Assembly: GCA_902578515.1 (NCBI GenBank)
Contig: CACHDH010000001.1
Coordinates: 1 to 43,276, forward strand
DNA: 43,276 nucleotides
Reading direction: 5' to 3'
DNA from: an uncultured marine group I thaumarchaeote
GTDB taxonomy: Archaea; Thermoproteota; Nitrososphaeria; Nitrososphaerales; Nitrosopumilaceae
Below, in pieces: positions 27,062 to 33,176 of the stretch (position 1 is the first letter of the stretch; each line of letters starts with the position of its first letter). A program made the position numbers and the translations under genes. The notes under the pieces are model-generated. The model was not told where the DNA came from. It did no database searches and was given only the letters and a program-made list of their open reading frames with translations.

Positions 27062-27201
27062 TAGAAAGAATTACGGAAAGCACTTAATCTTTGCATCATC
27101 GATGCAATACGCCATGAAAATGTCGTATGAAGGATGTAGTAGGTCTCCACCGGGGGCTTGCAATGATCGTCATGTATAGTCGTGTATTATGTGGCCGTAT
27201 A

Positions 27202-30198
<2,997 letters not shown>

Positions 30199-30300
30199 CG
30201 GCCACTTACATAGAGACTATACATGACGATTCATATTTTTAATTGAACTAAAAATTACCCACATACTTAGATTATATGTGGTTATTAGTTATTTCATCTA

Positions 30301-30410
30301 GCTGTGGGGGAGTGCGTAAGAAGGAATCTGCACGAGGGTGGATGTAAAATAAAACTCCCATCCTAGTACCAAACAGCAGAGAAATTCTACCCTCATGGCA
30401 TTCCATTTTT
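30301..30410. ncRNA. Candidate structured non-coding RNA (unassigned)
   Basis: GC-rich island with five complementary segment pairs, TATA-like ATTATAT about 24 nt upstream and T5 tract immediately after. Confidence 0.5.
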
Positions 30411-30455
30411 CAGAATTTCAAAAACTCTTTTATCAAGACTAGTCTAGTAATTATT

Positions 30456-30728
30456 ATGGTTGATGAAAAATCATCTAGAAATCAGGCTTATGTTTTGTTA
30501 AATGTGGATTACAAACATCAAAAGGATATTATCAATAAAGCTAAGACATTACCAACTGTAGAAAACGTCAAGGTAATGTATGGAATTTATGATGTAATGA
30601 TAATTTTGGAATCTAACGATATGGGCGCTATTAAAAAAACAATTGATGTTGATATACATAATTTTGATGGAATTACAAACATGACGTCACTAGTCACTGT
30701 TGGTATAGCTGGTGCAATTTTAGAATAA
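30456..30728 (+). CDS. Lrp/AsnC ligand-binding-domain-only protein
   Basis: AYVLLNV, V..V.VMYGIYDVMI.LE, I..FDGITNMTSL; no HTH. Confidence 0.88.
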   Translation: MVDEKSSRNQAYVLLNVDYKHQKDIINKAKTLPTVENVKVMYGIYDVMIILESNDMGAIKKTIDVDIHNFDGITNMTSLVTVGIAGAILE

Positions 30729-30731
30729 GAA

Positions 30732-31703
30732 TTGCAAGAATATGAAATAGTAATAGTAGGAGCCGGACCAGCTGGTCTTTCAGCTGGAATGTATGTTGCG
30801 AGACAAAATGTTTCGTGTCTAATCATCTCAAAGGATTTAGGTGGACAGATGAATCTAATCCCAAAACTTGAGAATTATCCTGGGACTATAATGTCCAGTG
30901 GACAAATATTAGCTAAGACTCTTGAGACGCAATATCTATCGTTTAAGGGAGAATTAGTTTATGATACTGTTGAAAAGATTGATGAATCCGATGGTGGTTT
31001 TAAAATTAAAACAAGTCGTTCTCAGTATACTGCCAAAGCAATTGTACTGGCACCAGGTAAAGTCCCAAATATGCTTGGTGTAGAAAATGAATCTGATTAT
31101 TTTAACAAAGGAATTCATTACTGTACTAAATGTGATGCACCATTTTACCAAGGTAGGACTACTGCATCTATTGGTGTTGGTTCTTATCTTGTGGAATCAG
31201 GTTTGCTATTATCACGAATGGCGTCTAAGATATATTTAATTTTAAAGGGCTCAAAACTTGGAGGCGATAAGGATCTGATTGCAACATTAGAAAATAACAA
31301 GAGCATCGAAATTATCACGCAGTCATCAGTGAAAGCGATTTCTGGAAACTCTGTTCTTCAACAAATTACAGTAGTTGATTCATCTGGAAATGAAAACGTA
31401 TTGGATGTTGATGCATTATTTATTGAATTAGGCTCAAAGATTGATCTCGATTATGTTAAACATTTAGTAAAAATAAACACCAAGGGTGAAATTGAAATTG
31501 AATCTGGTGGTGCAACAAGCCATCCAGCAATATTTGCTGCAGGTGATGCTACCACAATTCCATATAAACAAATTATTGTTGCATGTGGTGATGGCTCTAA
31601 CGCTGGACTTTCTGCATTTAATTATGTTGAAAAGCTAAAGGGTAAACCTGGTATACGTGCAGATTGGAAAAAACAGATAGGCGGCCAAGTTTTCCATTAT
31701 TAA
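30732..31703 (+). CDS. trxB: Thioredoxin reductase-like flavoprotein
   Basis: IVGAGPAGLSA, GGQ, ENYPG, CTKCD redox motif, IFAAGD; TTG start. Confidence 0.9.
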   Translation: MQEYEIVIVGAGPAGLSAGMYVARQNVSCLIISKDLGGQMNLIPKLENYPGTIMSSGQILAKTLETQYLSFKGELVYDTVEKIDESDGGFKIKTSRSQYTAKAIVLAPGKVPNMLGVENESDYFNKGIHYCTKCDAPFYQGRTTASIGVGSYLVESGLLLSRMASKIYLILKGSKLGGDKDLIATLENNKSIEIITQSSVKAISGNSVLQQITVVDSSGNENVLDVDALFIELGSKIDLDYVKHLVKINTKGEIEIESGGATSHPAIFAAGDATTIPYKQIIVACGDGSNAGLSAFNYVEKLKGKPGIRADWKKQIGGQVFHY

Positions 31704-33028: not shown

Positions 33029-33126
33029 GTCGGGATAGCCAAGCCTGGTAAGGCGGACGCCTCGAAATCTTAAACAGGACAGCGTCTGTGCATCCGCACA
33101 CGGGGGTTCGAATCCCTCTCCCGGCG
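33029..33126 (+). tRNA. tRNA-Ser(CGA) with 14-nt intron at 37/38 (33067-33080)
   Basis: Acceptor GTCGGGA/TCCCGGC, anticodon stem GACGC/GCGTC, CGA at 33063-33065, long variable arm, TTCGAAT loop, G73; CCA not encoded. Confidence 0.93.
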
Positions 33127-33176
33127 TCTTCTGATTTGGTATAACATAAAAGTAAGAGCATAATTGGTAATTGTTA

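Follow-up and report, generated by a model that had tools for sequence, protein, structure and literature searches.

Y RNA, 6S RNA and the SRP-type RNAs are hairpin RNAs bound by protein, and C-rich small RNAs of the Firmicutes mask ribosome-binding sites of the GGAG type. The Nitrosopumilaceae are among the most abundant microbes of the sea. PMC3432209 states that, as of 2012, the small RNAs of thaumarchaea had yet to be surveyed. Archaeal guide RNAs of the box H/ACA and box C/D types are taken here as defined in the accessible parts of PMC4652768 and PMC3608112. We analyzed a stretch of 43,276 nt (the window; contig CACHDH010000001.1 of assembly GCA_902578515.1) from the 58% complete genome assembly of an uncultured marine member of this family, in which a first-pass annotation had pointed to a candidate RNA next to the 23S rRNA gene. 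The reading we favor, with a probability of roughly 55%, is that the candidate is a remodeled member of a single-copy family of Nitrosopumilaceae hairpin RNAs, with its own TATA promoter and a nested, rod-like fold, working in trans in an RNA-protein particle.

Setting and predicted fold of the window element

Variants shared with relatives suggest that the window comes from the genus Ca. Nitrosopelagicus. It contains an archaeal 16S-23S operon, in which the match to the 23S model stops at position 30200. The 3' arm of the 23S processing stem (30186-30245, + strand) is predicted to form a duplex with the 16S-23S spacer at 27151-27215 (-55.5 kcal/mol); the stem stops at about 30245, short of the candidate's promoter. 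Downstream of the element, both on the + strand, lie a gene for an Lrp/AsnC ligand-binding domain (30456-30728; PF01037, E 3.7e-7), preceded about 22 nt before its ATG by a TATA-like sequence that is presumably its promoter (30428-30433, + strand), and a thioredoxin-reductase-like gene (30732-31703; PF07992, E 1.7e-31). Further along, at 33029-33128, the window holds a tRNA-Ser(CGA) gene with a short intron, which Rfam and an intron-aware scan detect and the default scan misses.

Two further observations concern the 23S rRNA itself and its surroundings. In contigs of all four RNA runs, window position 30213 is joined to about 27187, the 23S 3' trailer continuing into the 23S 5' leader. This junction is consistent with pre-23S rRNA ligated into a circle, which is a known route of rRNA processing in archaea. 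Separately, in other members of the family (loci L021, L028 and L031) the 23S trailer contains tandem units of 35-40 nt, each with a hairpin; L021 and L028 have about five such units.

The body of the predicted RNA occupies 30301-30399 on the + strand, its real ends probably lying near 30299 and 30410. As the first-pass annotation had noticed, it forms a GC-rich island in AT-rich intergenic DNA (47% GC, the flanks having 25% and 22%), and positions 30300-30400 are conserved among window-type loci while both flanks diverge. The ATTATAT sequence reported about 24 nt ahead of the first base is found at 30271-30277 (+ strand), 23 nt before G30301, and would be the RNA's own promoter. A T-run at 30406-30410 (+ strand) may be a terminator and is absent from some window-type loci. 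The flanking 7-bp hairpin (30259-30281, no strand assigned) also exists; it overlaps the TATA box, persists in 9/17 upstream variants and, being upstream of the predicted start, is probably outside the RNA. In loci L005 and L006, where this hairpin is lost, another inverted repeat can be read by eye around the same TATA box, and the inverted repeats in the window and in these two loci may hint at an operator. No tRNA lies at the site and the 5S rRNA is on another contig, in agreement with the statement that the element is neither. The folding energy is -34.4 kcal/mol (z -3.02) for the + strand, compared to -27.5 kcal/mol (z -1.02) for the - strand; with the G-U variation and the position of the TATA box, this upholds the original preference for the + strand and replaces the accompanying view that the strand was unresolved.

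The fold proposed in the first-pass annotation was a double pseudoknot of crossing helices, here called a (30301-05/30373-77), b (30309-13/30354-58), c (30323-27/30400-04), d (30331-39/30389-97) and e (30340-44/30359-63). All five pairings can indeed be drawn, and five disjoint 5-bp Watson-Crick helices are uncommon by chance (11/1000 dinucleotide shuffles; six stems of at least 5 bp occur in 6.9%). Overlooked, however, were a 10-bp closing stem, P1, pairing 30301-30310 with 30390-30399 (+ strand; pair probability 0.92-1.0), and an inner helix, 30327-31/30376-80 (spanning 30327-30380, + strand). The presence of P1 excludes helices a and d. We compared the two models on 18 distinct window-type sequences; these are 93% alike, so the comparative evidence within this set rests on few events. 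The nested model is paired in 99.5% of cells, the two unpaired cells being a matter of gap placement in a G run, and includes two compensated pairs, a result that none of 500 shuffles attained. P1 changes from C-G to U-A in two variants and from G-U to A-U in one, and the inner helix is 100% paired with a two-sided change at one pair. The knot model is paired in 91.9% of cells, a level that 198/500 shuffles attain. Helix c is 58.9% paired and intact in only 3/18 variants, helix a is broken in 1/18 and an extra A interrupts helix b in 2/18; no compensatory change was seen in helices a, b, d or e among the 18 sequences.

A clade-specific double-pseudoknot ribozyme or two-state switch, as originally suggested, is thus highly improbable in our estimation. 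Helices a, b, d and e are 98-100% paired across the window-type variants, and energy alone cannot dismiss the model since the folding program is blind to knots, but P1 stands against helices a and d, helix c fails, the overall score is that of shuffled sequences and the standard-type relatives described below have no pseudoknot covariation. The comparative evidence, including that from the relatives, favors a predicted nested rod over both the double pseudoknot, which is not supported, and a ribozyme-like fold.

Only helix e, of the five, agrees with the fold of the wider family. It corresponds to the apical hairpin (30340-30363, + strand), invariant in 18/18 window-type variants; a 7-bp register, 30335-41/30358-64, competes with it for the apical stem and is preferred by the energy model. 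The loop carries the hexamer AACUCC (30353-30358, + strand), found in 77/77 standard-type and 18/18 window-type sequences, and an AUUCU motif at 30384-30388 (+ strand) matches the family's conserved 3' bulge. Further down the rod, the inner helix and an alternative hairpin, 30312-16/30329-33, are each intact in 18/18 variants, and either may form in the predicted inner fold of the window type.

The predicted hairpin RNA family of the Nitrosopumilaceae

At the matching site after the 23S gene, two congeners (L007 and L008) have a different element of about 80 nt. In L007 it is preceded by the TATA motif seen in the window and followed by a gene of about 130 aa, the Lrp-domain gene and the thioredoxin-reductase gene. 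A third such element, in L055, is located elsewhere. A first covariance model, built from these three standard-type members, matched 68/151 Nitrosopumilaceae genomes in 13/27 genera, with one copy in 67 genomes and two in one. A second model brought in one further genus (14 in all) and matched 23 of 32 genomes of the family, compared to 0/118 genomes from other families of the order. Across the phylum it matched 15/22 family genomes vs. 1/128 others, the latter at chance level; the lone match from outside the family (G464, E 0.039) lacks the hexamer and was taken as chance. Among the 80 of 120 matches listed, the carriers are named as Nitrosopumilus, Nitrosarchaeum, Ca. Nitrosopelagicus, Cenarchaeum, Nitrosomaritimum, Nitrosopumilaceae or broader groups.

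The models found no copy in 13/27 genera, where the RNA would be either dispensable or diverged. As the model searches score only part of the candidates, diverged copies may be missed. Genera without a match were searched again by model (5 genomes) and by pattern (10 genomes), and no copy was found. Nor was a diverged copy seen upstream of two genes that neighbor the RNA elsewhere, one for a tRNA-binding protein (14 loci) and one for an orphan protein (20 loci). As the pattern also missed a known variant, all of these blanks are weak. On viral contigs, a loose motif scan led to 120 inspected loci, none with the fold, and strict patterns together with phage BLAST gave 0 matches.

To describe the standard type we selected 100 matches, comprising 77 distinct sequences. 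Two-sided changes occur at 22 of 25 pairs in this alignment, which is fitted to the model; none of 500 shuffles reached that count and controls with a slid alignment dropped to 33-45% paired. The nine pairs with the highest mutual information are all nested, and crossing helices show no covariation. From its outer end, the standard fold consists of a 10-bp closing stem, a 7-nt bulge on the 3' side, a helix of about 10 bp interrupted by a small bulge, then an internal loop (UAAAAUCC/AAY), a 5-bp stem (P4) and an apical loop (NUAACUCC) containing AACUCC. Covariation is seen at 9/10 pairs of the counterpart of P1 and at 5/5 pairs of P4, the homologue of the window's apical hairpin. Invariant throughout are the pairs G7-C86, G13-C73 and G14-C72, the bases A74 and C77, and AACUCC, around which the loop varies from 10 to 14 nt. 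Collecting relatives and examining their covariation, as had been proposed, therefore reveals a predicted hairpin RNA of about 80 nt, conserved and single-copy across many ammonia-oxidizing archaea.

The window element was matched in 5/60 relatives, to which a pattern search added two. Of the 32 stretches that a metagenome scan yielded, 24 belong to the window type and 8 to a shorter one, with none unrelated. Neither covariance model (R1 or R2) scores the window copy above background, so that its homology to the family rests on synteny, motifs and pairwise alignment. The window copy and L007 share the site after the 23S gene and the TATA motif. Window and standard types have in common the ends of the closing stem, the AACUCC loop and AUUCU (ANUCU in the family). 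Alignment of the window copy with L055 gives z 6.7 (0/500 shuffles), the range over eight members being z 1.4-6.7. Among 45 congeners, which are kin and hence do not count independently, the standard form occurs in 26, the window form in 8 and the two together in none; 9 of the 11 with neither are <90% complete. In a 23S tree of 20 rows, four of them less than half filled, the 8 window-type genomes form a single clade (89/87) whose sister is the L007 genome (96/93). We consider it very probable that the window copy is orthologous to the standard-type RNA; the window type is a derived, remodeled form of the predicted family RNA. The window clade has rebuilt the fold and yet kept three motifs, a natural experiment that indicates the working parts.

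Probable promoter, neighbors and possible partners

A TATA motif precedes the RNA in 17/17 window-type upstream variants (at identical spacing in 16, and 1 nt further away in one), and a TATA-like motif lies at similar spacing ahead of 93/100 standard-type loci, counted with a motif list picked after inspection. The genes downstream vary by lineage and include the orphan gene, the tRNA-binding protein gene, the gene of about 130 aa (L007 and L055) and the Lrp-domain gene, among others. The TATA-like boxes thus travel with the RNA while its neighbors change, suggesting that it is a stand-alone, trans-acting RNA. An own promoter motif, an intergenic position and a conserved structure, the features by which trans-encoded archaeal small RNAs are recognized, are all present. 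Of the roles put forward in the first-pass annotation, an independent small RNA is the one that these data sustain. RNA-library contigs from four studies pass through the window element at low depth, three entering from the 23S trailer and the fourth extending upstream, and give neither transcript ends nor strand; four RNA runs gave zero cover over the RNA at the one standard-type locus compared, which is uninformative.

Contigs that read through from the trailer, and the position next to the 23S gene, are what would be expected if the element were part of the rRNA trailer (a terminator or processing signal) or acted at the DNA level. We give this explanation almost no credence: most family members sit away from the rRNA operon, the processing stem ends before the promoter and G-U wobbles mark one strand.

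In most Nitrosopumilus-type loci, the orphan gene, of 65-71 aa, begins about 10-30 nt behind the RNA with no evident promoter of its own, and in L281, where the RNA is missing, the promoter motif runs straight into this gene. Both observations would agree with a cis-acting leader or riboswitch of the next gene. The downstream genes are unrelated among loci, however, lacking the consistent function expected behind a riboswitch; the orphan gene is displaced or absent in several RNA-bearing lineages, its co-occurrence with the RNA not being strict (a tally that takes in the unpublished genome G396, on which no claim depends); and no expression platform was seen. A leader is, in our view, improbable. 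The more specific proposal of a switch upstream of the Lrp-domain and thioredoxin-reductase genes is likewise unlikely, as another gene lies directly downstream in the window-type loci L004 and L006, the family precedes unrelated genes elsewhere and the Lrp-domain gene has a TATA-like box to itself. The orphan protein (for example L233:1595-1810) is conserved directly behind the RNA in Nitrosopumilus-type loci; it has no Pfam family and no atlas match at 0.9, and was not found in the four window-type genomes searched.

The tRNA-binding gene (PF01588, Trbp/CsaA-like) lies no more than about 350 nt downstream in many genera, and a consensus-folding tool offers a four-way alternative structure. 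Taken together these could suggest a tRNA mimic or a partner of the neighboring protein, which we judge very unlikely: covariation backs the rod over the four-way fold, and in lineages in which the RNA has moved, or was not found, the tRNA-binding gene remains in place and has a TATA-like motif to itself. Both this gene and the orphan gene persist without the RNA in other lineages. Upstream of the tRNA-binding gene in L292 there is a perfect tandem repeat of a 27-nt unit extending over >400 nt, apparently within a coding region.

We propose that the TATA box at 30271 would drive transcription of the RNA as a separate unit, and that the RNA would fold as a nested rod whose paired ends may protect it from decay. 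Invariant base pairs next to a bulge point to recognition by protein, and a protein would likely grip the invariant G-C pairs and the bulge beside the closing stem. The hexamer stays constant although the loop around it varies in length, and nothing inside the RNA covaries with it, which suggests a partner outside the RNA; AACUCC would likely contact an unchanging molecule, either a protein or an RNA containing GGAGUU. The RNA would then be one component of a small RNA-protein particle that acts in trans. The middle of the rod would have been rearranged in the window clade, bringing a UAAAA motif and AACUCC into one loop, with the closing stem, the hexamer and AUUCU kept through the rearrangement.

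If the outside partner were mRNA, the C-rich loop might mask GGAG-type ribosome-binding sites, a mode of action described for a small RNA of M. mazei in the accessible part of PMC3432209. The RNA has three motifs that are unpaired, rich in pyrimidines and either contain UCC/UC or end in it, and GGAG occurs upstream of 47/795 long ORFs. The exact complement GGAGUU, however, precedes only 6/795 ORFs, some of them false starts, long complements fall mostly within coding regions, and the presence of invariant pairs in the helices hints at recognition by a protein or through tertiary contacts. Regulation of mRNA by base-pairing is therefore rather doubtful.

The hexamer might instead pair with 23S rRNA at GGAGUU and, without guide boxes, chaperone or guide its folding or modification during ribosome biogenesis. 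The window loop at 30350-30358 has a 9-nt complement at 29376-29384 (+ strand) of the 23S gene, a speculative target that probably lies at the peptidyl-transferase center; the region matching it is modified in yeast. The GGAGUU segment is invariant in 41 family 23S loci whether or not the RNA is present; two genomes of a family with no RNA match have GGAGCU instead. The window-clade loop lengthens the match to 9 nt, placing this site first in rRNA, whereas with standard-type loops it comes no higher than 2nd to 21st. Since 10-18% of shuffles produce a 9-nt match and these rRNAs contain 64% of all hexamers, the predicted complementarity of the loop to this segment is near chance. A role in ribosome biogenesis thus seems distinctly unlikely; if true, it would define a new class of archaeal rRNA guide. 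A second 23S complement, at position 1463, was rejected since it reads GGAGGU in Nitrosopumilus-type genomes, and pairing of the element with the spacer or the 16S leader was no better than in shuffles.

Comparison with known RNA classes

As far as we searched, the RNA is undescribed, and it is more widely distributed than the first-pass annotation supposed. Rfam 15 gave nothing at the gathering threshold over the window element, and only chance-level matches up to E 10 (best E >1), which leaves its claimed novelty intact; the 14 standard-type loci searched gave no meaningful match, one miRNA-precursor match having E 3.1. We found no published description in the open literature, where an earlier mention is possible, and none of five motifs is present in the spreadsheet supplement of PMC5069720.

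HDV-like, glmS and twister ribozymes resemble the RNA in size, and the window copy can be drawn with crossing helices as they can. Unlike them, the family has a nested fold with no pseudoknot covariation, and no Rfam match. The C-rich-loop small RNAs, such as RsaE of S. aureus, also present an unpaired, invariant C-rich hexamer able to pair with GGAG. In contrast to these, the family forms a rod closed by its own ends, contains invariant helix pairs and has no conserved mRNA target that we could find.

Archaeal box H/ACA guide RNAs share with it a single hairpin of similar size, lower and upper stems of about 10 bp and an internal loop (PMC4652768 and PMC3608112, accessible parts), and a Cbf5-type domain is encoded in 60/60 relatives (a tally including the unpublished G397). 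They differ in several respects. The family RNA has no K-turn or K-loop, its loops being UAAAAUCC/AAY and NUAACUCC. Its lower loop is a one-sided 7-nt bulge rather than a two-sided pocket with guides of 4-8 nt. There is no free 3' ACA box; the family's ACA is instead a part of P1 that covaries with its pairing partner, the position reading ACA in 49 of the 77 sequences, ACU in 19, GCG and ACG in 4 each and GCA in 1. Box C/D motifs are found in 0/77 (RUGAUGA) and 1/77 (CUGA) sequences.

The Y, 6S and SRP-type RNAs differ from the family in that it has no Rfam match and is far shorter than 6S or SRP RNA; the gene for Ro60/TROVE, the partner of Y RNA, was found in 0/5 genomes by a search that detects it in two control genomes. 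With these RNAs the family nevertheless shares paired 5' and 3' ends, a bulge between invariant pairs, its own promoter and a single copy. A strongly covarying, single-copy RNA with an invariant loop, kept in ocean, freshwater and symbiont lineages alike, makes a candidate for a housekeeping-like role, and one that can be tested in cultured strains.
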